A DNA stretch of 24,000 nt from an uncultured Anaerolineaceae bacterium (GTDB lineage Bacteria; Chloroflexota; Anaerolineae; Anaerolineales; Villigracilaceae), in the NCBI GenBank assembly GCA_964370815.1, contig CAYJKQ010000011.1:55621-79620 (forward strand). Direction: 5' to 3'. The notes beneath the pieces are model-generated. The model was not told the origin of the DNA and ran no database searches. It saw nothing but the letters and a program-made list of their open reading frames with translations. A program made the translations under genes and the position numbers. This document shows, one piece after another, positions 2,457 to 22,902 of the stretch (position 1 is its first letter; every line of letters begins with the position of its first letter).

Positions 2457-2478
2457 AGACAGTAATTTAAACTCAAAA

Positions 2479-2514
2479 AGGCACTCCTGATATTTTATAA
2501 ATTCGGGAGTGCCT
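2479..2514 (+). other. stem-loop between the two MFS paralogs (AGGCACTCC / GGAGTGCCT, 9-bp stem extendable by 3 bp)
   Basis: Perfect inverted repeat seen at 2479-2487 and 2506-2514. No U-tract follows on the + strand, so it is not a canonical intrinsic terminator. Confidence 0.35.
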
Positions 2515-2565
2515 GTATTACTATTGGTTTAACCGAACGGATTGAAAAATGGTGTTCTAACCAGC

Positions 2566-3944: not shown

Positions 3945-4027
3945 ATTAATGGTCAAACTTGGCGAATATATTTATTTACTGTCCTTTATAAATGATCCCT
4001 CCAACCCACGAAGAAAGGAAATTTATA

Positions 4028-5152
4028 ATGTCCAGCAAATCCCCCGTTTTTTTATCCGTTATTCTTATCCTGACATTTGCGATCAGCTCCTGCGGACCAG
4101 CGTCATCAACCACCCAGCCACCAACCAACATATTACCAACATCAATGAATAAGTTGCCGGAAGCTACCATGACCGGATCAGTCAGCACTGCAGTACCCAA
4201 TGCTGACATTACTTTAATATGCAATCTTTACCAAACCGGAGCATTGGATGACCGATCTTTTGGTGCAGCTACATGGAAAGCCACGACAACCGCAGCGGAA
4301 ACCCTGGGAGTTGAGGTTATTTTTATTGAATCTGATATATCGGAGCTTGACAGCAGTATCAACCTGTTGATGGGTGAAGGCTGTGACCTGATCATTGGAG
4401 TTGGCACCAGTTTCAGCAATGCCATCAAGATGGCTGCAGAAGCCAATCCGGATCAAATATTTGGCCAGTTGGATGATAATTTCGATCCTGTCCTGCCGAA
4501 TGTTGCCACCAGTGTATACATCTTGGACCAGGCGACCTACCTGCTTGGTTACCTGGCTGCCTCGCAGACTAGGACAGGAAAGATCGGCACGTTTGCAGGA
4601 ATGATCTTTCCTGGAGTAACCATCTATATGGATGGTTTTTACATGGGCATGCTGAAATATAACGAGATCCATGACAAGAATGTTGAACTCGTTGGCTGGG
4701 ATCCTGAAACCAGCACAGGGACAGAAGTGGGGAATTTCGGTGATCGGGAGAAAGGAAAATCCATCACCCTCGAACTCATTGATCAGGGAGCAGACATCAT
4801 TCTACCGGTGGCTGGTGCCTCCGGACTGGGAAGCCTGGATGCAGTCAGCGAGAGGGATGCCCTGCTGGTCTGCATGGATGGAGATTGGTCGGTCATGTTC
4901 CCGGATTACAGCAGCAAGATCCTGGCCAGTGGAACAAAGAATGTGGACGAGTGGTTTTTTAACACCATTGAATCAGTAAAAAATGGGACATTTGCCGGGA
5001 ACTCCTATACAGGTTCTCTGCAAAACGGGGGAGTTGGCATCCTGTTGGGTGTTGATCATACGAATTCCATTGATCCGGCTATCATGGCTGAGATCGAGCA
5101 TCTACTGGAAGAAATAAAAGCAGGCAAGGTGGATATCCACTACGATCGATAA
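4028..5152 (+). CDS. BMP-family (PnrA/Med-like) ABC substrate-binding lipoprotein, orphan paralog
   Basis: Start chosen at ATG 4028 (MSSKSPVFLSVILILTFAISSCGP: signal peptide plus lipobox Cys) with an AAAGGAAA SD, rather than the track start at 3992. About half of aligned residues are identical by eye to the SBP at 10663-11754 (DQATYLLGYLAASQT, MDGFYMGM.KYNE, PVAG). Confidence 0.85.
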   Translation: MSSKSPVFLSVILILTFAISSCGPASSTTQPPTNILPTSMNKLPEATMTGSVSTAVPNADITLICNLYQTGALDDRSFGAATWKATTTAAETLGVEVIFIESDISELDSSINLLMGEGCDLIIGVGTSFSNAIKMAAEANPDQIFGQLDDNFDPVLPNVATSVYILDQATYLLGYLAASQTRTGKIGTFAGMIFPGVTIYMDGFYMGMLKYNEIHDKNVELVGWDPETSTGTEVGNFGDREKGKSITLELIDQGADIILPVAGASGLGSLDAVSERDALLVCMDGDWSVMFPDYSSKILASGTKNVDEWFFNTIESVKNGTFAGNSYTGSLQNGGVGILLGVDHTNSIDPAIMAEIEHLLEEIKAGKVDIHYDR

Positions 5153-5176
5153 AAATTTATTCTCCCCGCAGCAAAA

Positions 5177-5208
5177 ATGGAGGTTGGATCAAGAGATCCA
5201 ACCTCCAT
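5177..5208 (+). other. perfect 14-bp stem / 4-nt loop hairpin (ATGGAGGTTGGATC aaga GATCCAACCTCCAT)
   Basis: Seen directly, 25 nt after the SBP stop. No U-tract follows. The 3' arm abuts an extended -10-like TGCTATAAT (5208-5216) upstream of the URO-D-family gene. Confidence 0.5.
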
Positions 5209-5250
5209 GCTATAATCCTCTTAAATTCCATCTTAAGAAAAGGCCATCCT

Positions 5251-6402
5251 ATGACAATGACCGCACGTCAACGTGTTCTGACCTGCCTGGATCACCAGGA
5301 ACCAGACCGGGTGCCCATCATCATTGGCACCAGCAACACCACCAGTATGAAATTGGTTGCTTATCAGCGCTTGCAGAAGCTGCTGGGGGAAGAAAATGAA
5401 CCCGAATTTATCTACGATTGGCCTGAATTGGGTACGGTACTTCCATCCGAACGTATCCTTGAAAGGCTTTATGGCGATGCCAGGGGAGTTTTGGATAAAT
5501 ATCCGCAATGGGTGTACGACCGCAACAAAGCCCGCCCGCCACACAACCCCTTCCTTGATGACTGGGGCAGCGGACAGAAAGAAGTGTCTCCCGGGCAGTG
5601 GTTCCCTGGCATCCACCCCATGCGGGAAGCTACCACTCTGGCTGAGATCGAAGCCTACCCCTGGCCGGATATGGATGATCCATCACGCGTCGCCCATGTC
5701 AAAGAGGAAGCCCGCAAATTAGCAGTACAAGATCAGTATGCCATCATTGGCACCCCCTGGCTATTGTTCCCATTGGAAAGGGCTTTTGCCATGCAGGGTA
5801 TGGATAGATTTGTTTTGAACCTGGGCAGAAAACCGGAATTCGCGGTCGAATTGCTTAAAAAGATCACAGTCTTATGCAAAACATTAATGGAACACTTCCT
5901 CAAAGAAGCCGGGGACAACCTGGATATCATCAAGATCGGGGATGATCTCGGAACACAAACCAGCCTGATCATGTCCCCCAAAATGTACCGGCAATACCTG
6001 AAACCGATCCATGCTGATTATATTGCTTTTATTAAAGAGCGCACCAAAGCCAAAGTGTTCTTTCATACCGACGGCGACGTATTCGACCTGATCCCGGATT
6101 TCATCGAGATCGGCGTGGATATCCTCAACCCCATCCAGACCTCTGCTGGGAAAATGGCAAATCTGCAGGAGATAAAATCCCGCTATGGTGACCAGCTTGT
6201 TTTCTGCGGAGCAGTGGATACCCACCATATCCTGCCGATGGGCAGCCAGCAGGAAGTACGCACCGAGGTTAAGCGGGTGATCGACATCATGGCGCCGGGG
6301 GGCGGCTATATGCTGGCCTCGGTTCATACCATCATGGACGATGTGCCTCCTGAGAACATCCTGGCAATGGTGGATGCGGTGCAGGAGTTTGGAAAATATT
6401 AA
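5251..6402 (+). CDS. uroporphyrinogen decarboxylase (URO-D) family protein, MtaA/CmuA-like; substrate unknown
   Basis: 383 aa. The N-terminal R.R....L.....DRVP and the C-terminal FFHTDGDV..LIPDFIEIGVDILNPIQ and GGGYML...H motifs are characteristic of the URO-D superfamily. Confidence 0.8.
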   Translation: MTMTARQRVLTCLDHQEPDRVPIIIGTSNTTSMKLVAYQRLQKLLGEENEPEFIYDWPELGTVLPSERILERLYGDARGVLDKYPQWVYDRNKARPPHNPFLDDWGSGQKEVSPGQWFPGIHPMREATTLAEIEAYPWPDMDDPSRVAHVKEEARKLAVQDQYAIIGTPWLLFPLERAFAMQGMDRFVLNLGRKPEFAVELLKKITVLCKTLMEHFLKEAGDNLDIIKIGDDLGTQTSLIMSPKMYRQYLKPIHADYIAFIKERTKAKVFFHTDGDVFDLIPDFIEIGVDILNPIQTSAGKMANLQEIKSRYGDQLVFCGAVDTHHILPMGSQQEVRTEVKRVIDIMAPGGGYMLASVHTIMDDVPPENILAMVDAVQEFGKY

Positions 6403-6407
6403 TAAAA

Positions 6408-6437
6408 AAAGAGGAACTGGAAGCAGCTCCTTTTTTT
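6408..6437. terminator. bidirectional intrinsic terminator between convergent genes
   Basis: A7 run, then stem GAGGAACTG / CAGCTCCT (one mismatch, 4-nt loop), then T7 run. It sits between the URO-D stop (6402) and the permease stop (6456). Confidence 0.65.
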
Positions 6438-6455
6438 AGTCACTCTAAAAACCAT

Positions 6456-7733
6456 CTATTCTTTCTCGTAAGGAATGCCATCTGCGGCAGGCGGGGTGCT
6501 TTTGCCGACCACTCCAGCCAGAAGGATCATGGTGGCAACATAAGGAGCCATCAAAAGAAAATCTGCCGGGATGGGAACGTTCAGGATGGATAAGCGCGTG
6601 CCGAGTGAGTCTGCAAAACCAAACAGCATGCCAGCCCCGAAGGACCCCGCTGGGGTGTAATTGCCGAACAGCATGGCAGCCAAACCAATGAACCCTTTAC
6701 CGGAGGTCATCAATTTGTCAAAACGCCCGACAGAGCCGAGCGTGAAGAAAGAGCCAGCCAGTCCGGCGATCAGGCCTCCCAGCAACACAGCCATATAGCG
6801 GGTTTTGAAGACGTTAATTCCCAACGTATCGGCAGCTTTCGGATGCTCACCGACAGCCCGCACCCGCAAACCCCAGCGTGTTTTTTGCAAAGCAACGTGG
6901 ATCACGACCATGAGGATGAGCATGGCATACACGAAAATGCTGTTCTGAAAGAAAACCGGTCCTATGATGGGAATCTTGGAAAGCAAGGGAATCTTCCAGA
7001 TCGGAAAAGTACCCGGGCTATTTAAGAACTCATACTGCTGGACAAAACGGGAGGATATATAAGAAGTCAAACCGATAGAAAAGATATTGATGACCGTACC
7101 GGCGATGATCTGGTTGGTTTTGTACTTGATGGATAAAATGGCAAGCAGCCAGGCCATCAGTAAGCCGGTCAACATGCCCGCCAGCAAACCAAAATAGAGG
7201 TTGTGAGAGAGGGAACCGACGATGGTGGCAACCAGTGCACCTGCCAGCATCATTCCTTCGATGGCGATGTTGACAACCCCGGACTTCTCGCACAGGATCC
7301 CGGCAAAGGCACCCAGGGTGATGGGTACCGCCCGCTGGATGGTGGTCATTAAAAGACCTTCCAGGTTCAACGATTTACCCGCCGCTCCCCAGATCAAAAA
7401 GCCAAAGATAAAGAGCCCGATCAGGATACCCAGTATCCGGTTGGTCCATTGCTTTAATCCGACGAAGATCTGCATCAAACCCAGTACGATACATGCCGCC
7501 GAGAAACCCAGCAGCGTGTAATATGAGTTCATGGTCCAATCTGGCAGGATCTTTTCCTGTCCGCCCGGGTTGAGCCCAAAGGTGGTTATCTGAGTTGCAT
7601 TCACCTTGCTTGTAAAAATAAGGTGGATCAAGATGCCGATCAAGATGAAAATGACCCCAAAAACGACCTGCCTGGTGCGGGAAACTTCCTCATATTTCTT
7701 CTGGGATATGGCAAGACTCTTAAGCATGGTCAT
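6456..7733 (-). CDS. ABC transporter permease (BMP/nucleoside-type CUT2 family, YufQ/NupC-like)
   Basis: 425 aa, polytopic, with the branched-chain/ribose-type permease signature region. Overlaps the upstream permease by 4 nt. Confidence 0.9.
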   Translation of the reverse strand: MTMLKSLAISQKKYEEVSRTRQVVFGVIFILIGILIHLIFTSKVNATQITTFGLNPGGQEKILPDWTMNSYYTLLGFSAACIVLGLMQIFVGLKQWTNRILGILIGLFIFGFLIWGAAGKSLNLEGLLMTTIQRAVPITLGAFAGILCEKSGVVNIAIEGMMLAGALVATIVGSLSHNLYFGLLAGMLTGLLMAWLLAILSIKYKTNQIIAGTVINIFSIGLTSYISSRFVQQYEFLNSPGTFPIWKIPLLSKIPIIGPVFFQNSIFVYAMLILMVVIHVALQKTRWGLRVRAVGEHPKAADTLGINVFKTRYMAVLLGGLIAGLAGSFFTLGSVGRFDKLMTSGKGFIGLAAMLFGNYTPAGSFGAGMLFGFADSLGTRLSILNVPIPADFLLMAPYVATMILLAGVVGKSTPPAADGIPYEKE

Positions 7734-9004
7734 TTTCCTCCCATAGTGGTTGCAGCTATGATCTGATCCTTCTCTTTGGGTTCTTTCAACCTGTACATGG
7801 TACGGATGATGGCCGGGGCTGCAATGAACATCAAGACCATGGCCTGGATGATCGCGATGATCTCGACCGGGATCCTGGCATCCATCTGCATCCGTGTGGC
7901 GCCGTTATTAAGGGTGCCGAAAAGCAGGGCTGCCAGCCCAACCCCAACCGGGTTGTTATTTCCGAGCAGCGCCAGGGCAATGCTGTCAAACCCATACCCG
8001 GATGAGAAAGCTACAAACAAGGCATGATTCACCCCCAGCACTTCGTTGGCACCTGCCAGACCAGCCAGGGCACCCGAAAGGGTCATGGCCAGGATGATGT
8101 TGCGGGATACATTGATGCCTGCATATTTGGCTGCATTGGGATTCTCCCCTACCATGCGCAGGTTAAAGCCCCAGGTGGTTTTGAACAAAAAGATATATAC
8201 AATAAAAATGAAAGCAATGGCAATGAAGAAACCGATATGGAAGCGGGATGGGTCCGGGAATAATTTCGGCAATTCCGCAGAGGCTTGTATCTGAGGGCTG
8301 ACGGGTTGATAGGTCCCTTCCCTGCGCATTGGGCCGCGCAGCAACCAGTCATTCAACCTGAAGGCAATGTAGTTCATCATGATGGTATTGATGACCTCAT
8401 GTCCGCCGGTCTTGGCTTTCAACCAGCCCGGGATGAACCCCCACAAACCTCCGCCTACCGCACCTGCCAGCAGGGCGAAAGGAATATGAATATAGGCAGG
8501 CAGCCCGGTAAAATAATAACCGACGAAAACCGAAGCAGAAGCCCCGATAAAGATCTGCCCCTCCACACCAATGTTAAAAACACCAGCTTTGAACCCCAAT
8601 GCAACGGCCAGCCCGCCGAAAATATACGGCGTGGTTGCCACCAGGCTTTCAAGGATCGGGCTGAATGCCTTTATCTTCAAAGCCTCATCTCCTGACCTCA
8701 TGGCGGATGCAATCAGTTTGGGATCACCGATTGCGCCTTTGAACAGGGCTGTATAAGAAACGGCAACTGTATTCCATGCAAACGAGAGACCTTCAGCAAA
8801 AGATCTCCCGAAAGCTGTATATACATCCACATTGGTGATGACATTAAAGATGGCACCAAATACCAGCCCGGTAAAGATGGCAAGGAATGGTATTAAGAGG
8901 GACCGCCAGACTGAATGTTTTTCTGCTTTTGGCTTGAAAATTTTTTTCACTTCATCCAAAAAAACTTGACCAGCATTGGGTTTGTCGGTTTTAACTTTTT
9001 TCAC
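7730..9004 (-). CDS. ABC transporter permease (YufP/NupB-like)
   Basis: 424 aa, polytopic. It is in an operon with the ATPase (23-nt gap) and the second permease (4-nt overlap). Confidence 0.9.
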   Translation of the reverse strand: MKKVKTDKPNAGQVFLDEVKKIFKPKAEKHSVWRSLLIPFLAIFTGLVFGAIFNVITNVDVYTAFGRSFAEGLSFAWNTVAVSYTALFKGAIGDPKLIASAMRSGDEALKIKAFSPILESLVATTPYIFGGLAVALGFKAGVFNIGVEGQIFIGASASVFVGYYFTGLPAYIHIPFALLAGAVGGGLWGFIPGWLKAKTGGHEVINTIMMNYIAFRLNDWLLRGPMRREGTYQPVSPQIQASAELPKLFPDPSRFHIGFFIAIAFIFIVYIFLFKTTWGFNLRMVGENPNAAKYAGINVSRNIILAMTLSGALAGLAGANEVLGVNHALFVAFSSGYGFDSIALALLGNNNPVGVGLAALLFGTLNNGATRMQMDARIPVEIIAIIQAMVLMFIAAPAIIRTMYRLKEPKEKDQIIAATTMGGK

Positions 9005-9027
9005 TTGGATACCTTTGGTTTAGATCA

Positions 9028-10566
9028 TCAAGAAATGGCAAACTCTGCCAGGGAATCCGGTATGATGCCGGCCATTACCAAACCAACTTCTTCTTTTGTA
9101 GCTTTCCCGGAAGGGATGATCGCCAGGATCTTACCCCGATACATGACCGCGATGCGGTCTGCCAACTGCATGATCTCATCCAATTCAGGTGAAACCAGGA
9201 TGACAGCCACCCCTTCATCGCGCTTGTTCAGGATCTGACGATGGATATACTCGATCGAGCCAACATCCAGGCCGCGCGTGGGCTGTGAGGCGATCAACAA
9301 CTGGATCGGGCGGGACAATTCGCGCGCCACGATCACTTTTTGCTGGTTACCTCCGGATAAATTACCAACCCTTGTATTGATATTCGGGGTCCGGATATCA
9401 AATTGGTCGGTCAGTTTACTGGCATTTTCATCCACCTTATCCCATTGCATAAATTGATTTTTAGAAAATGGCGGCAGATAATAGGTGCACAAGACCAGGT
9501 TTTCCTTAACAGGGAAGGGCAGCACCAGCCCATCCTTCTGCCTGTCTTCCGGGATGTGAGCCACCCCGAGCTCCGTGATCTTACGGGGAGTGGCATGGCT
9601 TACGTCCACCTCATTGATCTTGATCTGACCCTTTGTGATACTTCTCAGTCCGGTCAGTGCCTCCACCAGCTCGGTCTGCCCGTTTCCCTGCACACCTGCA
9701 ATTCCCAGGATCTCTCCACCACTAACACTGAAGGAAACATCATCGACAGTAACCTGTTTCTTGTTATCCGTCACGATCAGGTCATTGACATTGAGGACCT
9801 CGTCACAGATCAGGCATTCAATTTTGGTCAGCTCAAGTTCTACTTCCCGCCCGACCATCATGGCTGCCAGGGTATTGCGGGAGGCCTTGTCCGGGGTGGT
9901 TTCACCAACCATTTTCCCCTGCCGGATCACGATGATGCGGTCAGCCAGTTTCAGCACTTCGCGCAATTTGTGGGTGATGAAAATGATCGATTTTCCCTGC
10001 GATGCCAGCGAACGGATGATCTCAAAAAGGTCATCGGCTTCCTGGGGAGTCAACACGGCGGTCGGTTCGTCAAAGATCAGCACTTCAGCGCCGCGGAACA
10101 ACAATTTTATGATCTCAACCCTTTGTTGGACGCCAACCGGAAGGTCTTTGACAAGGTCATATGGATTGACTTCAATTTTATAATCATTTGAGATGGCTAT
10201 TATTTTCTCGGCAGTTTTTGCCGTGTCCAGGAACCCCCCGGCTTTCACATCCTCCTGCCCCAGCATCACATTCTCTGCCACATTAAAAACAGGCACCAGC
10301 ATAAAATGCTGATGGACCATTCCGATCCCTTTTGAGATCGCATCTGAGGGTGAATGAAACGAGACCTGGTTGCCTTCGATGAATATTTCCCCCTCATCCG
10401 GCTGATAAAGCCCATACAGCACATTCATCAGGGTTGTCTTCCCGGCTCCATTTTCACCGAGCAGGGCGAGGATCTCACCCTTTTGGAGCGTAAAACTGAT
10501 ATGATCATTGGCGATCACACCGGGGAAAATTTTGGTGATGTTCTTGAATTCGAGAACAGGAGTCAT
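9028..10566 (-). CDS. ABC transporter ATP-binding protein, duplicated ATPase (CUT2 type, RbsA/YufO-like)
   Basis: 512 aa. Walker A GENGAGKTT, signature LPVGVQQRVEI, Walker B VLIFDEPT; the second half has GVQGNGQTEL, LSGGNQQKV and LLIASQPTRGLD. Confidence 0.95.
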   Translation of the reverse strand: MTPVLEFKNITKIFPGVIANDHISFTLQKGEILALLGENGAGKTTLMNVLYGLYQPDEGEIFIEGNQVSFHSPSDAISKGIGMVHQHFMLVPVFNVAENVMLGQEDVKAGGFLDTAKTAEKIIAISNDYKIEVNPYDLVKDLPVGVQQRVEIIKLLFRGAEVLIFDEPTAVLTPQEADDLFEIIRSLASQGKSIIFITHKLREVLKLADRIIVIRQGKMVGETTPDKASRNTLAAMMVGREVELELTKIECLICDEVLNVNDLIVTDNKKQVTVDDVSFSVSGGEILGIAGVQGNGQTELVEALTGLRSITKGQIKINEVDVSHATPRKITELGVAHIPEDRQKDGLVLPFPVKENLVLCTYYLPPFSKNQFMQWDKVDENASKLTDQFDIRTPNINTRVGNLSGGNQQKVIVARELSRPIQLLIASQPTRGLDVGSIEYIHRQILNKRDEGVAVILVSPELDEIMQLADRIAVMYRGKILAIIPSGKATKEEVGLVMAGIIPDSLAEFAIS

Positions 10567-10610
10567 AACTCTCCTTCAGGAAGATTTGTGAAAAACATTA
10601 TAACATTAAG

Positions 10611-10644
10611 AAAAGAGGAGCTGGCTTTCACCAACTCCTCTTTT
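10611..10644 (-). terminator. intra-operon hairpin/attenuator between the SBP and ATPase genes
   Basis: On the - strand transcript: AAAAGAGGAGUUGG ugaaag CCAGCUCCUCUUUU, a 14-bp stem with one G.U pair and a U-rich 3' side. The same position is a C.A mismatch on the + strand, so the structure is better on the coding strand. It starts 18 nt after the SBP stop. Confidence 0.5.
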
Positions 10645-10662
10645 TGTTTCTTTAAGGTTCGA

Positions 10663-11754
10663 TTAGCGGGAGTACTGGTAAACGAGTGTGCCGGCAATGA
10701 TCTCAGCCTGGAGTTGTTCGATCTCAGCCAGGATGGCGGGATCAATTGTGTCCTTGAAATCAACACCAACAGCAATACCAACACCACCATTATCGAGGGT
10801 ACCCACGAAGGTGTTGCCTGCAAAGGTTCCGTCAACAACGGTTCCAATGGTATCCGTCAGCCACATATCCATGTTCTTCAAAGCACTGGCAAGAACAAAA
10901 GCTGAATCTTCGTCGTAGAGGACGGACCAATCGGTATCCACACCAACCATCAAGGCGCCGCGTTCTTTTACAGCAGCCAGGGTACCAGCGCCAACGGGGC
11001 CAGCCACAGGCATGATGATGTCAGCGCCTTCGTCGAGCAGACCGAGGGTGATGGTCTTACCCTTGTCAACATCGCTGAAGTCACCAACTTCCAAACCTGT
11101 GTATGCAACCGGATCCCAACCTTTCAATATAACATCGGTACCATGAACTTCGTTGTACTTCATCATGCCCATGTAGAAACCGTCCATGAAACTGGCGGTG
11201 GATGGGAATAACATTCCAACGTAGGTTCCGAGGATACCGGTCTTGGTCTGGGACGCAGCCAGGTAACCCAGCAGGTAGGTGGCCTGGTCAATATTGTAAA
11301 CACTGGCAGCCATATTGGGGTACACCGGATCCCAAGCCATATCGATCATGCCAAATTTCTGGTCAGGGTTGGCAATGGCAGCGGCTTCGGTGGCGAAGTT
11401 GATGTTGAAGCCAACACCAACGATCAGGTCACAAGTACCATCCAGGTAGGAATTGATGTTCTTCTCATAATCGGACTGTTGTTCGGATTCAAGAAAAACA
11501 CCATCCACTCCATATTTAGCCATGGCATCGGTGACACCTTTCCATGCGGTCGCATTGAAGGATTTGTCATCCACACCACCCATATCGTTGACGTTGCAGA
11601 TCTTGATTCCGATCGGGGCAACAGTGGGAGCTGCTGTAGGGGCATCGGTAACCACAGGACCTTCGGTCGCTATGACTCCACCACCACCACAGGCTGACAG
11701 CAGCATGGAGGCTACCATCAGGATTGAAATTACAACTAAAATTTTCTTTGACAT
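10663..11754 (-). CDS. BMP-family ABC substrate-binding lipoprotein (PnrA-like, probable nucleoside binding)
   Basis: 363 aa. Signal peptide plus lipobox MLLSACGGGG and BMP-family motifs. It is the first gene of a four-gene ABC operon. Confidence 0.9.
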   Translation of the reverse strand: MSKKILVVISILMVASMLLSACGGGGVIATEGPVVTDAPTAAPTVAPIGIKICNVNDMGGVDDKSFNATAWKGVTDAMAKYGVDGVFLESEQQSDYEKNINSYLDGTCDLIVGVGFNINFATEAAAIANPDQKFGMIDMAWDPVYPNMAASVYNIDQATYLLGYLAASQTKTGILGTYVGMLFPSTASFMDGFYMGMMKYNEVHGTDVILKGWDPVAYTGLEVGDFSDVDKGKTITLGLLDEGADIIMPVAGPVGAGTLAAVKERGALMVGVDTDWSVLYDEDSAFVLASALKNMDMWLTDTIGTVVDGTFAGNTFVGTLDNGGVGIAVGVDFKDTIDPAILAEIEQLQAEIIAGTLVYQYSR

Positions 11755-16248: not shown

Positions 16249-17304
16249 TTATATCAACCCAAACTTGTGTTCATGGTTTAGCAGGTATTGCTTGCGCCAC
16301 AACCCACCCCCGTAACCGACAAGTCTCCCGTCTGCCCCGATGACGCGATGGCAAGGAATGATGATGGCGATCCTGTTATCGCCATTTGCCCTTGCCACAG
16401 CCCGCACTGCACTGGGCTGATCTATGAGCTCAGCCTGTTCTTTGTAGGAGCGGGTGGAACCATAGGGGATCATTTGCAAGCCCGCCCACACTTTTTGTTG
16501 AAAAGGTGTTCCGGGCAGCACCAGGGGAATGTTAAATACCTTGCGCTTGCCGGAAAAATATTCTTCCAATTGCATGCTGAGACCATCAAAATGCTTACTG
16601 AAACCGGGGACTATCTCAGCCTTCAATAAATTGTTCAACCTTCCCAACTGGGTTTCCAACATTCTTCTATCGACAAATTCCAGCAGGCAAATGCCATCTT
16701 CGCTGGCTCCAGCCAGCATTGGACCCAACGGTGTCAATATCCGGGTGGTAACGATCAGTTGCCCTTCCAGGCTTTTAGCGGGGCTAAAACCAGCCGTCTT
16801 TTTGAACGAATCCGTGAAGCCACTTAACGAATTGTAGCCGGATTCAAAAGCTGTTTCCGTAACCCCTTCTCCATATTTGATCCTTCCAAAAGCCTGCCCG
16901 ATCCGCAAGGCACGCAAATAAGCCTGAAAAGTTATGCCGTGATGTTTCTTGAACCAGTAATTGACCCGGTTGGGTTCCAACCCCCTGGACCGCAGGTCGC
17001 TGCTTTGTATCCTGACCAGCGGGTTCTCGTTGATCTCAGCTAATAAAGGATTCAACCAATCGGGCGCTGTCCCTTTATAACTTAAGGGATTACAAACCTT
17101 GCAGGGTCGGTAACCACTCACAAGTGCTTCATGAGCTGTGCCAAAAAACTCCACGTTTTCCGGTTTTGGTTTTCGGGCAGTACAAGTAGGCCGACAAAAG
17201 ATACCGGTCGTCTTGATCCCAGCCATGAAGATCCCCTCAAAATTACTGTCCTTGTTGACCAAGGCTGAATACATTATTTCTGTGTCCGGCAGGGTTTGTT
17301 CCAT
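16249..17304 (-). CDS. ada: bifunctional Ada: methylphosphotriester-sensing Zn domain + AraC HTH + O6-alkylguanine-DNA methyltransferase
   Basis: 351 aa. N-terminal Cys cluster FCRPTCTARKP...YRPCKVC, a central AraC-type HTH region, and the C-terminal MGMT active site IIIPCHRVIG. Confidence 0.9.
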   Translation of the reverse strand: MEQTLPDTEIMYSALVNKDSNFEGIFMAGIKTTGIFCRPTCTARKPKPENVEFFGTAHEALVSGYRPCKVCNPLSYKGTAPDWLNPLLAEINENPLVRIQSSDLRSRGLEPNRVNYWFKKHHGITFQAYLRALRIGQAFGRIKYGEGVTETAFESGYNSLSGFTDSFKKTAGFSPAKSLEGQLIVTTRILTPLGPMLAGASEDGICLLEFVDRRMLETQLGRLNNLLKAEIVPGFSKHFDGLSMQLEEYFSGKRKVFNIPLVLPGTPFQQKVWAGLQMIPYGSTRSYKEQAELIDQPSAVRAVARANGDNRIAIIIPCHRVIGADGRLVGYGGGLWRKQYLLNHEHKFGLI

Positions 17305-17352: not shown

Positions 17353-17475
17353 TTGATCTTACTCACAACCGAAAATCAAACAAACAATTTTCCTTCCACC
17401 TGCTCTCACATTGTCGCGGAAGTGAGCATGAGCGCTGGTATCAGGGTGTCAGCTGGCGTTGCCAGTTCGCGCAAA

Positions 17476-17808
17476 TTAGACGGCATGCCTGCCCAACCAG
17501 AACTTGCGCCAGTCGCCCTTGCTGAGGAAAAGCGCCAGCAGGGCATACAGGCTTCCAGCCCAGAAACCGAGCGTGAGCATTGCCGCCGTCCACAGGATGG
17601 CAACCGGCAGCGACCTCTCGCGGTACAGGATCCAACCGGAAAACAGCAGGAAGCCAGTGTACAGGTCCACCAGGGAGACGATACCCCACGGCATTTTCAT
17701 CAGCTCGCTGCCTTCAGTGAAGAAATCACCCACCGTAAAACCGTAGATCAGTACAGCCGTCATGACCAGCAGGCCTAAAATGGAGATGAGTTTCGCGGTC
17801 TTCATCAC
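17476..17808 (-). CDS. small polytopic membrane protein, DUF1475-like
   Basis: 110 aa. The motif GDFF.EGS.L..MPWGIVSLVDLY.GF.LFSGWI.YRE resembles DUF1475 from memory. Start is GTG 17808 (GTGA overlap) or ATG 17805 (TGATG overlap) with the upstream gene. Confidence 0.65.
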   Translation of the reverse strand: MMKTAKLISILGLLVMTAVLIYGFTVGDFFTEGSELMKMPWGIVSLVDLYTGFLLFSGWILYRERSLPVAILWTAAMLTLGFWAGSLYALLALFLSKGDWRKFWLGRHAV

Positions 17809-18149
17809 AGCACCAGTATCACGCCGATCACGATCTCAATTACCAGGCTGATGACGTTGGAGCTTTCGATGGATTTATCTGTAAACATCGAGATGGCTCG
17901 AACCACGGCGATTGCCAGGTACATCATGCCAAGCATGGGATAAGCTACAGCTTTGTCTAATATTAGTGCTGCGATGCCAAGCCCGATGAATAGTCCGCCA
18001 AATATGGCGCGGATCTCCGTAATGCCGCGCCCACCGACCGGATGGATGCCGGTAAAGCCTTCAATTTTGGTCGGCACGACCAGGGACAACAGTCCGGTTA
18101 GTAAGGTGGCGATAACAGCAATGATCTGGAGTATCTTTAGCAGGTTCAT
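17805..18149 (-). CDS. small 4-TM membrane protein, DUF4345-like
   Basis: 114 aa. The motif E.RAIFGGLFIGLG is reminiscent of DUF4345. AAGGAG SD lies 5 nt upstream of the ATG. Confidence 0.65.
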   Translation of the reverse strand: MNLLKILQIIAVIATLLTGLLSLVVPTKIEGFTGIHPVGGRGITEIRAIFGGLFIGLGIAALILDKAVAYPMLGMMYLAIAVVRAISMFTDKSIESSNVISLVIEIVIGVILVL

Positions 18150-18242
18150 TTATTCTCCTTGTCTTTCATTAGCCAGGTAGGAGGTCCGGAGGCAGGCTCA
18201 TTGGCATTCTTGAGAGACAGCTCTGAACAGGTTGTTCCTGGA

Positions 18243-19085
18243 TCAAGTATTCTCTTGTGAGATCACGGCGAATCCGAGCGCACCCACCCCAAGATGGCAA
18301 CCCAGCACGGGTGTGATCTGATGAATGGGAATTTCTGTATCGGGCAGGTATTTAAGAACCTGCGTGCGCAAATCTTTGGCACGCGCTTCCACGCCAGCAT
18401 GCAGAACAGCCAACTGTTCGAAAGGACCATATTCGTCCAGCCAGCCGATCATTCGTTCCATTGCCCGCCGCGTGGTACGGACCCGGTGTGCGACAGGTTT
18501 GCCCTGGTTCATATGCAGGAGAGGTTTAAGCTTCAGGATCTCTCCAAAACGTGCCACGGCAACATGCATGCGTCCGCTTCGGCGCAGGTATTCGAGTGTG
18601 TCCAGCGCCGCGAAGACATGGGTGCAAGGCATGAGATCCTTCAAGGATTCCAGGATCTCTTCGATCTTATGACCGGACTGCGCCATCCGGGCTGCTTTTT
18701 CCACCAGGAGCCCCAACCCCAGGCTGAGTTGACCCGAGTCCAGTACGGTGACAGGGATGCGGGTGAATTCTTTGGCTGCTGTGCGTGCCGAGTTGAGAGT
18801 CGCGCTGAGCGCTTCAGCAATGTGGATGGATAGGATGGCTTGAAAACCTTTATCCGCCAGCTCTTCAAAGCGCTTTATGAATATTTCCGGTCCGGGTGTG
18901 GCAGTGCTTGGTGCGGGGTCATATTCCGGCAGCCGGGTGTAGAACTCGTCTTTGGTGATGTTCACTCCGTCCATCAACCGCTCTTCACCCATCTGGATGA
19001 AGAGCGGGATGACCTCTATGCTGTAGCGCTGCACGATATCGGGGGTCAGATCGCAAGTACTGTCAGTGACGATGGCAATTTTCAT
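18243..19085 (-). CDS. DegV-family (FakB-like) fatty-acid-binding protein
   Basis: 280 aa with IAIVTDSTCDL at the N-terminus, STATPGP (the TSQPSPG equivalent) and typical DegV length. The start is 15 nt after the heliorhodopsin stop. Confidence 0.9.
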   Translation of the reverse strand: MKIAIVTDSTCDLTPDIVQRYSIEVIPLFIQMGEERLMDGVNITKDEFYTRLPEYDPAPSTATPGPEIFIKRFEELADKGFQAILSIHIAEALSATLNSARTAAKEFTRIPVTVLDSGQLSLGLGLLVEKAARMAQSGHKIEEILESLKDLMPCTHVFAALDTLEYLRRSGRMHVAVARFGEILKLKPLLHMNQGKPVAHRVRTTRRAMERMIGWLDEYGPFEQLAVLHAGVEARAKDLRTQVLKYLPDTEIPIHQITPVLGCHLGVGALGFAVISQENT

Positions 19086-19100
19086 GGATACTCACGGGTT

Positions 19101-19892
19101 TTAGACTGGCGCCAATGTTCCGGCGAAGATCATCCAGGCCAATACGGTTTTGGCGACCAGGCTCAAAATAATGAAGGCGCGTTCACCATACAGGTAATCC
19201 TTCCATGGTCCGATCTTTTTATATTGCAGGTACATGTTGACGGCAAAGGTATTGAAGAACACGAACAGGGTCGGGATGATGGCGTACACAAAGGCAGGTG
19301 GTTTGGCTTCCCCACCCGAGGCTATCGAACCGAAGAAGTATATGAAGATCACCAGCCAGGGGATGATGCCGGCGATCGAGCCAAAAGTGAACGGCGCCCA
19401 GTCCAATTTTTCCTTGCCCTGGTTCAGGCTTTCCATCAACAGACCGAACAGGTTCATCATGGCATTCAAACCGAACATCACCACTATGGCACCCAGGTCC
19501 CAGACCCCGGCCAGCATCCCGATCAGAACGATCATCAGGGATGAGCTGAGAGCATATTCATAGAACCGGATGGGGTTCCTGCCTTGTTCCAGTTTTTGTA
19601 CATAACTCTTGTAACCAATGCCGCTTAGGTAAAAATGAGCGATGGCGGAAAGCAGGAGAAAGATCGCGACTGCCGGACCCAGGGGTAACTCGTATAAGAG
19701 TTTTGCGACTGGAGCCAGCGAGAAAGTACTGGTGTTAAAACTCAGGAAATTGGTGAAAACAGGATAGGTGGTGTCATTGCTGACCAGCCACATAAAGACA
19801 CCCTGGATCAGGTGCAAAATACCCATGATCAGGTTGAAACGGCGCAGGCTGGTAAATTTAGCCTGGTTGGAACGAACTTCTGTGTTAGTCAT
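19101..19892 (-). CDS. heliorhodopsin (retinal-binding 7-TM photoreceptor)
   Basis: 263 aa, 7 TM. It aligns by eye with the prototype 48C12: RRFNLIMGILHLIQ (His27), LSAIAHF (His86), RFYEYALSSSLMIVL (counterion Glu112, codon 19557-19559), IAGIIPW, LFVFFNTFAVNMYLQYKK, and GERAFIILSLVAKTVLAWMIFAGTL (Schiff-base Lys248, codon 19149-19151). AAGGAG SD present. Confidence 0.9.
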   Translation of the reverse strand: MTNTEVRSNQAKFTSLRRFNLIMGILHLIQGVFMWLVSNDTTYPVFTNFLSFNTSTFSLAPVAKLLYELPLGPAVAIFLLLSAIAHFYLSGIGYKSYVQKLEQGRNPIRFYEYALSSSLMIVLIGMLAGVWDLGAIVVMFGLNAMMNLFGLLMESLNQGKEKLDWAPFTFGSIAGIIPWLVIFIYFFGSIASGGEAKPPAFVYAIIPTLFVFFNTFAVNMYLQYKKIGPWKDYLYGERAFIILSLVAKTVLAWMIFAGTLAPV

Positions 19893-19934
19893 TACTACTC
19901 CTTATAGGTTGGTTGAAATTAATTGGGAATGAAA

Positions 19935-21251
19935 TTACGTGGTTCTTTGCCCGGCAGGCTGCAGGTCAAACCAGTTCAATAGGGGTGCAGCTTCCTGCCC
20001 GAGCGCTTTACGGACACTATCGAAATAAACGCTCCAGGCTGCGCTTGCCTGGTCAATGCCGTACTGGCGGTTATTTAGAAAACCTTCCATCCAGTGCATT
20101 TCAGGCAGGAGAAGGTCCAGGTCGCCGAGATAAAGTGCTGCGGCAACCGAATTGTTCATAAAAAGGGTTATATCGTTGTGGTTTCCTCCTGAAATATCTC
20201 CTGCAGAAAATTGAGTTGAGATCAGTGCTTGGATCGTGTGCAGGTTGAGCTGGAATGATTCATAAAGCTTCCGGAAGGGATTTTCTCCTTCATCAGGGTT
20301 GGCAGGAAGTTTTTTATGGAGGATCAATTCTTCAATTGCAGCGGGAGCTTCTGCGAGCGTATCCCCGAGAAAATGTGCCGGGAGCTGCTTCAGGAGCCCG
20401 GGATTGTTCCTGAAAATACGTCCACCAAAACCAACGGGATGGCTATTTGCCAATGCCTGTACGGTTCGTTTTAATTGTGCGGCACTGCTCAATTGTTGTG
20501 CGGAAAGGACAACCAGCCGGGGCTGAATGCTTTCAGCCGTCTCTTTCAGTTGTGCAATGGGGACGTTGGCGCCCAGGTCGATCACTTTGTAGCCCTGCCT
20601 TCGCAGCAGGAAGGTCAGACAAGTACCCGGGAGTGTATGCTCCTCGCCGGGTGGGCAGCACATCAGGATGGTCTCCTCCCGGTTTGAAGGGGGCATGGAG
20701 GCTATCAGGCTGCCCAGGCGCCGCCGGGCAACCCCGGCCGCGAAGTGTTCCTGTTGTATGCTGGCTTTTCCCTGGTACCAGCTTTCTCCGATTTCAAACA
20801 TGCCTTTCAGGAAGATCTCGCTGCACACTGTTTCCGGGTTGACGAGACCGAAAGCCCTGTTGACGACCTGGTCAGCCAGGTTTTCGTTAAAATTAAGGCA
20901 GGCTTCCAGCCATTGAGCGCGCAGACTGTCTGGCGCAGAACCCATCCCCCCTGATGAAAAATTTGCAGCCTGGATGGAGGAGGATGGATGATCTTCTTCC
21001 AGAGGATCGCGGCCTTTTCGGATCAGGTCGTGCCACAAACCCACGGAATTGGAGATGCTGATGCCTTCGGATCGTTTTGCCATCAACCAGCGGATGATGG
21101 CGATGTCACGTTGCGAGTAGATGCGCTGCCCGCCGGAGGTGCGTCCCGGGGCAGGCAGGTTGTAACGACGCTCCCAGGCTCGCAGGGAATCTGCGCTCAG
21201 TCCGGTTAAACGGATGACGGCTTTCAGGTTGAAGGTGGGTGTGTTTTTCAT
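19935..21251 (-). CDS. MerR-family, cobalamin-binding light-responsive regulator (CarH/LitR-like) with a C-terminal extension
   Basis: Start moved to ATG 21251 (MKNTPTFNLKAV..), since the track start at 21290 falls within the promoter region. N-terminal MerR HTH. The Wx9EH motif WYQGKASIQQEH lies at 20745-20780. A Rossmann B12 domain carries the His loop PPGEEHTLPG (His codon 20637-20639). About 125 extra C-terminal residues follow. Confidence 0.85.
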   Translation of the reverse strand: MKNTPTFNLKAVIRLTGLSADSLRAWERRYNLPAPGRTSGGQRIYSQRDIAIIRWLMAKRSEGISISNSVGLWHDLIRKGRDPLEEDHPSSSIQAANFSSGGMGSAPDSLRAQWLEACLNFNENLADQVVNRAFGLVNPETVCSEIFLKGMFEIGESWYQGKASIQQEHFAAGVARRRLGSLIASMPPSNREETILMCCPPGEEHTLPGTCLTFLLRRQGYKVIDLGANVPIAQLKETAESIQPRLVVLSAQQLSSAAQLKRTVQALANSHPVGFGGRIFRNNPGLLKQLPAHFLGDTLAEAPAAIEELILHKKLPANPDEGENPFRKLYESFQLNLHTIQALISTQFSAGDISGGNHNDITLFMNNSVAAALYLGDLDLLLPEMHWMEGFLNNRQYGIDQASAAWSVYFDSVRKALGQEAAPLLNWFDLQPAGQRTT

Positions 21252-21277
21252 GGCGCAGGTTTGTCCTATCAGCAGGC

Positions 21278-21307
21278 ATTGTAACCCCATTTACAATCAT
21301 TTGTCAA
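21278..21307 (-). promoter_or_regulatory. promoter of the photoregulator/heliorhodopsin cluster with embedded operator palindrome
   Basis: Minus strand: TTGACA (rc 21302-21307), 18-nt spacer, TACAAT (rc 21278-21283). A perfect palindrome ATTGTAA-N6-TTACAAT (21278-21297) fills the spacer and the -10. Confidence 0.55.
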
Positions 21308-21411
21308 GGGTTTGTCCATATATTGTATGGATATGGATTGGAAGCGATCAAACCTTTCGGGCAGAGGCAGAAAAGCAGCAGAGCATGAATGATCGTAGAA
21401 CGCAAGAAAAT

Positions 21412-21440
21412 AAATAACTCCCTTTTGCGGGGAGTTATTT
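21412..21440. terminator. intrinsic terminator downstream of the lipoprotein gene
   Basis: 11-bp perfect stem AAATAACTCCC / GGGAGTTATTT with a 7-nt loop. U-rich sequence follows on the - strand (AUUUUCUU) and also on the + strand (UUUUCU). Confidence 0.6.
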
Positions 21441-21518
21441 TCTAAAGGGCAGGAAGGAAAATAGCCTGCCCGGGTCAATGCCTGTTAATCATTGGAAGCG
21501 ATCAAGCGGTTTCTTCGA

Positions 21519-22454
21519 TCAGGGAATGGCTTCAATAATGATTGTTATAGAGCAGAGGATCGTGGTGCCATCAACCAGATCCCAGGTTTCGGTGTATTCT
21601 TTGGGTGTAGCCGGTACGATCAGATCCAAGAGCAAGGTAGATTCTTCTTTCGGGGCTATATCTTTAGTGAGATCGGATTTAGTCAAATTATTGTGCATAT
21701 TGGTGCCGCTCTTAAACTGATAGAACACAGTTCCTTGTTTCCATGTGGTCAAACCGTCGTTTTTTACGACCCAGATAAGGTCATATTGTGTTTCTCCAAC
21801 TTTGAACTTGTCGTGATCCTTGGGAATTATGGAGACAAAGGAACATTTATACACGGGGGTGGTGGGCTTGGTTGTGGGGGTATTGAGCGTGCCTGTGGGG
21901 GTATTGAGCGTGCCTGTGGGGGTAAATGTAGGCGTGGAGGTATTTGCCGCTATGGGGGTATGGGCAGGCGTATAAATGGGCATTCCCGTAAAATCGTTGA
22001 CCTGTGTGGCGTAGAAGCCCCACACCCAGCAATAGGTACCGCGCTGACCGGGATTTTCAATGAAATAGTAACCGCGCGTGGGGTCCAGGGCGAAGACCTC
22101 CGTCATAATACCAGGAGCCAGCAGCCCAACTTTCTCATAGACGACATCCGGTCCCAGGCGGCAGTTGGTTTCCTTGCTGACGCTGATCATCGCCTTGTTC
22201 GAGGTTGGCAGGGGCAGCGCTGTGCCGGTCTGAAAAGGTGTTTCGGTCAAGAAAGGCACGGGGGTGTCGCTTGGGTTGGAGAGCGCCATCTGGGTCAGTG
22301 TGCCCGCCACGGCAGCCTGGGCAGTTTCAAAAACGGCTGTCAGTTGGGCGCCTTCCTGGGTTGGAGCCTCTGTTTCCGCTGCAGGACCACAGGCGCTGCT
22401 CACCAGCAGCATGAGGGCTGTCGCTAAAAATAGCAGGGTCTTTTTTGTGTTCAT
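21519..22454 (-). CDS. secreted lipoprotein with Thr/Pro-rich repeat linker, SH3b-like and NBR1/Ig-like C-terminal domains (function unknown)
   Basis: Start moved to ATG 22454 (MNTKKTLLFLATALMLLVSSACGP), which has an AAGGAG SD 7 nt upstream. The track start at 22547 adds a non-signal extension. The domain calls are impressions from sequence patterns only. Confidence 0.7.
   Translation of the reverse strand: MNTKKTLLFLATALMLLVSSACGPAAETEAPTQEGAQLTAVFETAQAAVAGTLTQMALSNPSDTPVPFLTETPFQTGTALPLPTSNKAMISVSKETNCRLGPDVVYEKVGLLAPGIMTEVFALDPTRGYYFIENPGQRGTYCWVWGFYATQVNDFTGMPIYTPAHTPIAANTSTPTFTPTGTLNTPTGTLNTPTTKPTTPVYKCSFVSIIPKDHDKFKVGETQYDLIWVVKNDGLTTWKQGTVFYQFKSGTNMHNNLTKSDLTKDIAPKEESTLLLDLIVPATPKEYTETWDLVDGTTILCSITIIIEAIP
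21879..21924 (-). repeat. perfect 21-bp tandem duplication (GGTATTGAGCGTGCCTGTGGG x2 plus 4 nt) inside the lipoprotein CDS
   Basis: Units at 21879-21899 and 21900-21920 are identical. They are in frame and encode TGTLNTP twice. Confidence 0.9.
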
Positions 22455-22743
22455 AATATTCTCCTTAAAGAGAACGATCACGCTGAAATCGGGCGGCAGA
22501 ATGATCAAGAATAGGATGGAGGTTGTTGTCATCCACCCTGAATTCAATTAACTAGAATCATACCATAAAAATGGTTGGAGCAAGGTTCATCCAAGAAAAG
22601 GTGTTTTTTTGGAAGTTCCCATTATTTCCAATGAGGAATATTGCATTTTTTTCGAAGATCGAACCCGTTTGACCACAATAAAGCCAATAATCATGCCATA
22701 ATGTTATGAGATAATAAACAAGATTTTTTTCATTAATTCAGGG

Positions 22744-22862
22744 TTACTACTCAGACCCTAAAGGTTTACCCGGAAAAAAAAGTGAGCGATGGTCAGAATA
22801 TCAGGCTTGGCGTTCAATTTTTCTGCCATTGAAACCTTTAGGGTCTTGACCTGAGCAGTTAC
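22744..22862. mobile_element. 119-bp MITE-like palindromic element flanked by the 9-bp direct repeat AATTCAGGG
   Basis: Direct repeats at 22735-22743 and 22863-22871. Ends are TTACTACTCAG... and ...CTGAGCAGTTAC (9/11 inverted match). The internal arms contain AGACCCTAAAGGTTT (22753-22767) and its complement AAACCTTTAGGGTCT (22832-22846). No ORF. Confidence 0.5.
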
Positions 22863-22902
22863 AATTCAGGGAAGATACAAATAAATATTAAAGGATCACT
22901 CC

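Follow-up and report, generated by a model that had tools for sequence, protein, structure and literature searches.

Operators of the CarH/LitR photoreceptors consist of tandem 11-bp repeats (nAnnTnnACAn), three in Thermus or four in Bacillus, that overlap the promoter (PMC8156234), and a light-responsive signature, GxxW / EH / GxxH / GxxxP, has been published (PMC11796333). In the photocobilins (Schneider 2022; Zhang 2024), represented by SasPcob (8j2w/8j2x) and AbDPcob (8j2y), cobalamin is bound next to a globin domain, of which Trp296 in SasPcob contacts the corrin ring (PMC10979010), and the relationship of this photoglobin family to phycobiliproteins has been described (PMC8717448). An architecture joining a MerR helix-turn-helix (HTH), a B12 domain and a photoglobin has been catalogued bioinformatically by Schneider et al. 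2022, and neither characterisation nor target genes of such proteins were found in the searchable literature. Heliorhodopsins (HeRs), whose physiological role is a standing question, have been surveyed through their gene neighbourhoods. The neighbours reported by Chazan et al. 2021, who propose membrane-lipid repair and mention common light regulation, include DegV, DUF2177, DUF1295, AhpC/TSA, MFS, photolyase, and “cobalamin-binding proteins”; Bulzu et al. 2021 describe carotenoid and photolyase genes around Znf-HeRs, and Cho et al. 2024 list a MerR-regulator operon group near HeR. Here, we describe a string of five genes, headed by a MerR-type B12 regulator and including a HeR, in a 24-kb stretch (24,000 nucleotides, hereafter the window) of contig CAYJKQ010000011.1 from an uncultured Anaerolineaceae bacterium. 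The analysis directly establishes the gene families, the domain architecture, the conservation of motifs, the sequence and conservation of the promoter and operator, and the synteny. On this basis, the feature is real and conserved, a CarH/LitR regulon of a new form in which light probably derepresses the operon. The reading of the locus as a light-derepressed CarH/LitR-type operon that includes a heliorhodopsin is given a probability of roughly 0.6.

The regulator protein and the layout of its operon

The first gene of the string had been assigned to the CarH/LitR type in an earlier reading of the window made from the letters alone (the sequence-only reading), and this assignment held for its lineage, as the MerR HTH, the Wx9EH motif, and the histidine ligand are all present. 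Pfam scores were 44.7 bits for MerR_1 (PF13411), 34.2 for PF00376, 47.1 for B12-binding_2, and 38.6 for B12-binding (PF02310), the latter above its cut-off. The closest solved structure by sequence is that of T. thermophilus CarH/LitR (3whp/5c8d, E = 2e-28), to which the HTH, W-x9-EH, and the His ligand align, with about 60% identity, counted by hand, over the HTH-wing core. An alignment of 64 full-length homologues (about 430-450 aa) shows no variation at W158, E168, H169, E203, H205, G227, or P231; the first three form the Wx9EH motif and H205 is the His ligand, so that these invariant residues match all four elements of the light-responsive signature. Judged by these motifs, the regulator is a member of the adenosylcobalamin (AdoCbl) photoreceptor lineage, and B12 binding, DNA binding, and a light response are predicted for it. 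The assignment did not hold for the CarH equivalog itself (NF052513), membership of which was rejected given a score of 146.6 bits against a cut-off of 400 and the presence of a third domain. In L137, L140, and L143, tandem pairs of shorter regulator-like genes (about 310 aa) were observed, presumably two-domain CarH/LitR paralogues, and those of L143 adjoin MFS, crtI, and crtB.

The third domain is conserved, spans residues about 300-438, and has no Pfam match. The AlphaFold2 model of the regulator (predicted local distance difference test, pLDDT, 88) was superposed by Foldseek on three photocobilin structures (8j2y, 8j2x, and 8j2w), the alignments covering 318-331 columns at target-normalised TM-scores of 0.76-0.83 and root-mean-square deviations (rmsd) of 3.5-3.9 Å, whereas CarH chains aligned over about 200-320 columns only, with poor rmsd for full-length chains. 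When the C-terminal domain was modelled alone (pLDDT 82), its matches were nearly all allophycocyanin, phycocyanin, ApcE, smURFP, and photocobilins, at weak E values of 0.4-6. The regulator family profile aligned with AbPcob residues 40-310 in one stretch, through the globin domain (E = 8e-23), and the invariant W387 aligned with the Trp of both photocobilin sequences. These comparisons of sequences and models indicate that the regulator is a fusion of MerR, cobalamin-binding domain (CBD), and photoglobin rather than a two-domain CarH/LitR protein. The position aligned, with low confidence, to the biliverdin-binding Asp270 of SasPcob (photoglobin D49) is F364, with Phe as the family consensus and an Asp or Asn three residues further on; bilin binding by the regulator appears doubtful.

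The five minus-strand genes described in the sequence-only reading were reproduced as open reading frames (ORFs), as were the terminator and the promoter upstream of them (Table 1). From the regulator gene onward, the intergenic gaps measure 42, 15, and 93 nt, and the start of the DUF1475-like gene overlaps the stop of the DUF4345 gene, by 4 nt if the start codon is GTG and by 1 nt if it is ATG. For the regulator, another possible ATG at 21290 is located 5' of the -10 box and finds no support in the N-termini of homologues. The promoter matches the consensus at 11 of 12 positions, is the top-scoring site in 6.8 kb, and is the sole promoter-like site 5' of the five genes in a consensus scan that recognises near-consensus sigma-70 sites only. 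On the minus strand between this promoter and ada, the scan found no further promoter-like site before a weak one at 17352-17324, corresponding to the candidate promoter that had been proposed for ada. The upstream terminator, an 11-bp stem followed by a T-run, is predicted to insulate the operon against read-through from the Ig-domain gene, and its hairpin is kept, with a variable loop, in the loci of the two closest regulator homologues (L081 and L082).

The earlier claim that no terminator separates the genes was also borne out. Terminator-like matches within the operon (20052-20034, 19815-19798, and 20526-20513) all lie inside coding sequence, and overall their number (10, compared with 7.5 expected in shuffles) shows no excess over chance. 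The 93-nt gap between the DegV and DUF4345 genes revealed no significant structure or hidden terminator on folding against shuffles (z = -0.30) and carries an AAGGAG ribosome-binding site only. A search of the whole window against Rfam yielded no family at gathering score, and hence no cobalamin riboswitch or other RNA element. By their layout on one strand, with short gaps, a single promoter, no internal terminator, and a conserved order, the five genes are classed as an operon, and they would be co-transcribed.

The candidate operator, read on the minus strand, comprises five 11-bp units, TATCCATACAA, TATATGGACAA, ACCCTTGACAA, ATGATTGTAAA, and TGGGGTTACAA, four of which contain an ACAA core. 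The block overlaps both promoter boxes (-35 and -10) along with the spacer between them, and includes the imperfect palindrome TTGACAA-ATGA-TTGTAAA. The pattern ACAA-N7-ACAA-N7-ACAA, which overlaps the -35 hexamer, occurs once in the window compared with none in 100 shuffles. In L081 and L082, which are also the two closest syntenic loci, a 50-bp block is conserved while the flanking intergenic DNA is not, and the block of L082 holds four exact ACAA cores at 11-bp spacing.

Table 1. Positions of the genes, regulator domains, and regulatory signals in the window.
Feature	Position	Strand	Basis
Regulator gene, 438 aa	19935-21251	minus	ORF call and family hidden Markov models (HMMs)
Regulator, MerR HTH domain	21042-21239	minus	
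Regulator, B12-binding four-helix bundle and Rossmann fold	20364-20933	minus	
Regulator, photoglobin-like helical domain	19962-20273	minus	
HeR gene, 263 aa	19101-19892	minus	ORF call and family HMMs
DegV-family gene (fatty-acid-binding protein)	18243-19085	minus	ORF call and family HMMs
DUF4345 gene, small membrane protein	17805-18149	minus	Pfam match
DUF1475-like gene, small membrane protein	17476-17808	minus	Partial Pfam match
ada, full-length, next gene after the operon	16249-17304		Family HMM
Sigma-70-type promoter, TTGACA-18-TACAAT	21278-21307	minus	Consensus scan
Candidate operator, five 11-bp units	21279-21333	minus	Repeat pattern and conservation
Intrinsic terminator of the upstream Ig-domain gene	21412-21440	minus	Hairpin and T-run
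Deletion scar	17399-17486	minus	blastn collinearity break and direct sequence reading

Related loci and the membership of the regulon

Conservation was assessed in a HeR-centred census of 80 loci from a genome collection, nearly all Anaerolineae, and in a regulator-centred census of the closest homologues and 80 metagenome loci. A regulator homologue was found within 6 kb of HeR in 13 of the 80 HeR loci, all with a HeR at least 76% identical, and it lies directly 5' of HeR in 11 of the 13 close HeR loci having upstream sequence, as well as in L081 and L082. The exceptions are L011, with two genes between regulator and HeR, and L018, with the regulator about 2.5 kb upstream and two genes between. 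The conserved gene order expected from the sequence-only reading was therefore recovered in related genomes, together with a tight regulator-HeR junction. The gap at this junction has the same length, 42 nt, in the window, L001, and L081; L082 has 31 nt and another six genomes have about 43-51 nt, and in these ten genomes the gap holds an AAGGAG ribosome-binding site only. Wider gaps are found in L004, L005, and L008 (roughly 120-130 nt, with a hairpin-like element) and in L015 (199 nt). The latter gap (L015:5802-6000) contains an N-terminal DegV gene fragment (MNIRIVTDSTCDLPQEIV...), which shows local rearrangement around HeR.

Comparisons of the encoded proteins of L002-L015 with those of the window showed uneven amino-acid identities, of 85-89% for HeR, 70-79% for DUF1475, 58-68% for DegV, and 38-42% for the regulator, a pattern suggesting that HeR either is very strongly constrained or has been exchanged between lineages. 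The HeR itself, recognised as such in the earlier reading, was firmly placed in its family by PF18761 (333 bits) and NF038020 (356 bits, cut-off 100) and matches TaHeR (6is6) at E = 1e-71. It is 71% identical to the HeR of a Bellilinea caldifistulae genome (locus L040), and in the alignment to TaHeR 6is6 and 48C12 6su3 its Schiff-base Lys, counterion Glu, and the conserved His of transmembrane helices 1 and 2 are all present. From these residues, the heliorhodopsin of the window looks functional. No blh or carotenoid-cleavage gene was recognised with Pfam and NCBIfam in the window or in the clusters of relatives, and three conserved proteins (336, 251, and 217 aa) have no match to a Pfam or NCBIfam family. 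A Rieske/VanA_C oxygenase recurs in L001, L011, L017, L019, L032, L081, and L082; its top NCBIfam match is 4beta-methylsterol monooxygenase at 86 bits, far under the cut-off.

The product of the third gene matches DegV at 255 bits and TIGR00762 at 269 bits, and reaches 162 bits for the FakB1 equivalog, whose cut-off is 350. Of the 17 closest loci (L001-L017), 13 keep the HeR and DegV genes next to each other, and a divergently oriented DegV adjoins more distant HeRs in L027, L029, L030, and L034, indicating that the HeR-DegV link persists independently; any partnership between the two proteins is putative. DUF4345 (30.9 bits, cut-off 26.5) recurs in related clusters at varying positions, and DUF1475 is a partial match (24.0 bits, cut-off 22.3). 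In both L081 and L082, the common order is Ig-domain, regulator, HeR, DegV, DUF4345, DUF1475, DUF3159, Rieske, MutS_V, and Ada, so that DUF3159, Rieske, and MutS_V are retained between DUF1475 and ada. A blastn comparison with L081 showed that the window is collinear over 22593-17463 at 83% identity, after which about 3.4 kb with DUF3159, Rieske oxygenase, and MutS_V is gone from the window. A remnant ORF of 26 codons at 17486-17406 (MPSNLREL...) fuses the first eight DUF3159 codons to the MutS_V tail. By this comparison, the operon of the window is a trimmed one that has lost three downstream genes by deletion.

Regulators about 44% identical to that of the window head a string without HeR, crtB<>crtI-regulator-DegV-DUF1295-DUF4345-DUF1475-DUF3159-AhpC-MFS-photolyase-P450-lycopene cyclase. 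Among the 80 metagenome loci, the first gene 3' of the regulator encodes an epimerase (8), DegV (6), photolyase (3), or MFS (3), crtI lies directly 5' of the regulator in nine, and HeR adjoins the regulator in one (L121: crtI-HeR-regulator). The insertion of HeR behind the regulator is confined to the clade of the window (HeR at least 82% identical). DegV, DUF4345, DUF1475, DUF3159, and DUF1295 accompany the regulator with or without HeR, in varying order. The fixed set of accessory proteins that the sequence-only reading had tied to the rhodopsin is thus not upheld: since strings without HeR carry the same genes, it is the regulator to which DegV and the small membrane proteins are attached, with HeR as an optional insert. 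The synteny indicates that the operon represents, in local and trimmed form, a larger light-stress regulon of Anaerolineae, which comprises carotenoid synthesis, photolyase, pyrimidine-dimer glycosylase, peroxiredoxin, and a membrane-lipid group of DegV, DUF1295, DUF3159, DUF4345, and DUF1475, and that HeR is an add-on member in one clade.

The distribution of operator-like DNA is consistent with such a regulon. Strict ACAA triplets at 11-bp spacing were found in the window and L006 only, the relatives using GACAA/TTGTC variants, and the relatives were scanned with TTGACAA-anchored patterns instead. They carry a TTGACAA...TATAAT promoter module 5' of the regulator or crtI, with spacers of 16-17 bp (18 bp in the window) and -35 and -10 boxes near consensus. 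More distant relatives have a related, larger module, TTTTGTC..TTTGTCAAGG ... CTTGACAAAnnnTnGACAAnGTGTATAAT, in which inverted TTGTC repeats precede direct GACAA repeats. It lies 5' of the regulator in L004, L005, L008, and L014, and in the crtB<>crtI divergent region, where crtI precedes the regulator, in L002, L010, L013, L015, and L084-L086. In the pattern scan, which covered 1.63 Mb from the 80 HeR loci, TTGACAA-N6-[GA]ACA occurred 10 times, nine of them 19-98 nt 5' of the regulator (3), crtI (3), HeR (2: L017 and L069), or a divergent neighbour (1), and three of the four occurrences of TTGACAA-N3-4-TTG[TG] sit 47-54 nt 5' of HeR (L035, L036, and L048). At these five loci, no regulator lies within 6 kb of HeR, which suggests that HeR is also a member of the regulon in trans.

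Proposed light control and alternative explanations

If the operon is derepressed by light, the AdoCbl-loaded regulator would oligomerise in the dark and bind three or four of the tandem 11-bp repeats where they cover the spacer and -35 box, and RNA polymerase would be blocked at this single promoter. Light from UV to green would cleave the Co-C bond and the oligomer would fall apart, after which regulator, HeR, DegV, DUF4345, and DUF1475 would be transcribed as one message, with the regulator controlling its own gene. The heliorhodopsin would then probably be made only in the light. By analogy with photocobilins, the photoglobin-like domain could pack on the corrin edge; its function may lie in adjusting the photoresponse or in binding another ligand.

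Several observations weigh against light derepression of this kind. Besides the low score for the CarH equivalog, the B12 loop departs from the canonical ExHxxG: alongside the invariant E203 and H205, the window protein has Pro in place of the Gly (with a Gly one residue on), and homologues have Thr, Pro, or Ala there. A full match to nAnnTnnACAn is shown by only one of the 11-bp units, out of five, and TTGACAA contains the -35 consensus, which inflates the association of the scanned patterns with promoters. Moreover, the non-coding repeat block of the window at 21301-21333 (ATACAATATATGGACAAAC) resembles GGTACAATAnCTGTnCAAAATATGGnCAA, the coding 3' end of crtI in L002, L009, L010, L013, L015, L085, and L086, where the encoded CrtI tail is GTI(S/T/A)VQNM. 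This crtI-like block may represent either an operator lying within a gene or the relic of a lost crtI, and part of its conservation could be that of a remnant rather than of an operator; for the crtI 3' end, coding constraint on the GTISVQNM tail may explain the conservation as an alternative to an independent operator. Previous studies have indicated that photocobilins undergo no large CarH-type rearrangement on illumination (PMC10979010), so the oligomer switch of the regulator may differ, and that the HeR transcript of a freshwater actinobacterium is raised in the dark (PMC8591293), so light induction of heliorhodopsins is not general.

The genes could also be co-located without being co-regulated, the regulator controlling only itself or distant carotenoid genes, HeR and the downstream genes being expressed, whatever the light, from weak promoters inside the operon, and the synteny reflecting shared ancestry in one Anaerolineae family. 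The confinement of regulator-HeR adjacency to one clade and the wider gaps in L004, L005, L008, and L015 would fit this explanation, and the restriction of the promoter scan to near-consensus sites is relevant to weak internal promoters. However, gaps of about 31-51 nt with a ribosome-binding site only persist in ten genomes despite regulator divergence to 40% identity, the consensus scan detected no promoter-like site inside the operon, and HeR genes lacking a nearby regulator bear the same type of operator in their own promoters, which makes co-location alone unlikely. A shade less credible still is that the regulator is no B12 light switch, being instead CarA-like and B12-independent, a B12 or redox co-regulator of the AerR/CrtJ type, or a sensor of light or another signal acting mainly through a ligand of its photoglobin domain. 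The extra globin-like domain conserved across the family and the ExHxxP loop speak for this, as do two precedents: M. xanthus CarA retains the B12 motif and yet B12 is dispensable (PMC8156234), and the globin domain of AbDPcob binds biliverdin weakly and may have another role (PMC10979010). Nevertheless, none of the four signature elements varies, among them Wx9EH, which cradles the adenosyl group, the neighbouring genes have typical light-induced functions, and Phe stands, in a low-confidence alignment, at the position of the biliverdin-binding Asp270.

An activator of the MerR type that remodels the promoter in light, in place of a departing repressor, is very improbable. The regulator has a MerR-family DNA-binding domain, the 18-bp spacer of the window is slightly long, and the palindrome TTGACAA-N4-TTGTAAA lies within the spacer; however, MerR activators typically act on 19-20-bp spacers, and the shorter spacers and near-consensus boxes of the relatives need no activation. 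In addition, all characterised CarH/LitR proteins are repressors (PMC8156234). Light derepression could also be extended by making HeR an active part of the switch, with retinal, cobalamin, and possibly a third, photoglobin-bound ligand in one circuit, in which HeR signals to the regulator or DegV and provides feed-forward or colour-discriminating control of membrane-lipid repair. We regard this extension as distinctly unlikely; if true, it would provide a physiological role for heliorhodopsins, generalising to DegV-linked ones in monoderms.

Genomic surroundings and comparison with known systems

Upstream of the operon, the product of the minus-strand gene at 21519-22547 has a signal peptide, a tandem repeat of TPTGTLN, and an N_BRCA1_IG domain. 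This gene is a neighbour conserved in L081 and L082, and the long plus-strand ORF at 21492-22427 is its antisense shadow. A second indel flanks the operon on this side, as an ABC-2 transporter pair and an MFS gene (L081:3339-6619), located between the alpha/beta-hydrolase and Ig-domain genes in L081 and L082, are missing at window 22593-22890. On the other side, a nucleoside-type ABC transporter (two Bmp/PnrA binding proteins, an ATPase, and two permeases) occupies 3992-11754 around a URO-D-like gene (5251-6402), and two tandem MFS genes lie at 1197-3846.

The locus places one heliorhodopsin clade inside a putative B12-photoreceptor regulon with carotenoid, photolyase, and lipid-handling genes. 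Because the DegV/DUF membrane set belongs to the regulon and not to the rhodopsin, the arrangement supports the hypothesis that heliorhodopsins are concerned with photo-oxidative damage and membrane remodelling. It also offers a concrete, testable system of one promoter, one repeat operator, and one regulator, going beyond the statistic that HeR occurs near light genes, and the first candidate target genes for MerR-CBD-photoglobin transcription factors, which are interesting as green-light optogenetic parts.

The sequence-only reading had not recognised this wiring as a described system, and it is undescribed only in part. The neighbour associations have already been published as statistics by Chazan et al. 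2021, Bulzu et al. 2021, and Cho et al. 2024, whereas in the searchable literature no paper was found that pairs a heliorhodopsin with CarH, LitR, or a photocobilin or credits HeR control to a B12 photoreceptor, and the proposed link from such a photoreceptor to HeR is new as far as found. Those surveys provide Pfam-level statistics, in which, as far as found, the regulator as a B12 photoreceptor, the operator, and the attachment of the DegV/DUF set to the regulator are absent; DUF2177, prominent there, is absent here, and DUF1475, DUF4345, and DUF3159 are prominent instead. As in the AbHeR-glutamine synthetase and OcHeR-ABC transporter systems, HeR shares an operon with a presumed partner, DegV being its most persistent neighbour. 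However, the partner class here would be a fatty-acid-binding protein, uncharacterised with heliorhodopsin.

In relation to CarH/LitR class I of Thermus thermophilus, Bacillus megaterium, and Myxococcus xanthus, the regulator shares the N-terminal MerR HTH, the four-helix bundle with Wx9EH, and the Rossmann B12 domain with a putative His lower ligand. The candidate tandem 11-bp operator with an ACA core over the -35 box, the predicted autoregulation, and the linkage of relatives to crtB/crtI and photolyase are further similarities. It differs in having an ExHxxP loop and about 140 extra C-terminal residues that are modelled as a globin-like domain, in the larger, bipartite operator of its relatives, and in an operon that includes HeR and DegV. 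With the photocobilins, it shares the two-module core of CBD and globin and the aligned invariant Trp. However, the characterised photocobilins are stand-alone proteins or diguanylate-cyclase fusions that do not bind DNA, whereas the protein of the window carries a MerR HTH and has Phe aligned, with low confidence, to the key biliverdin-binding Asp.

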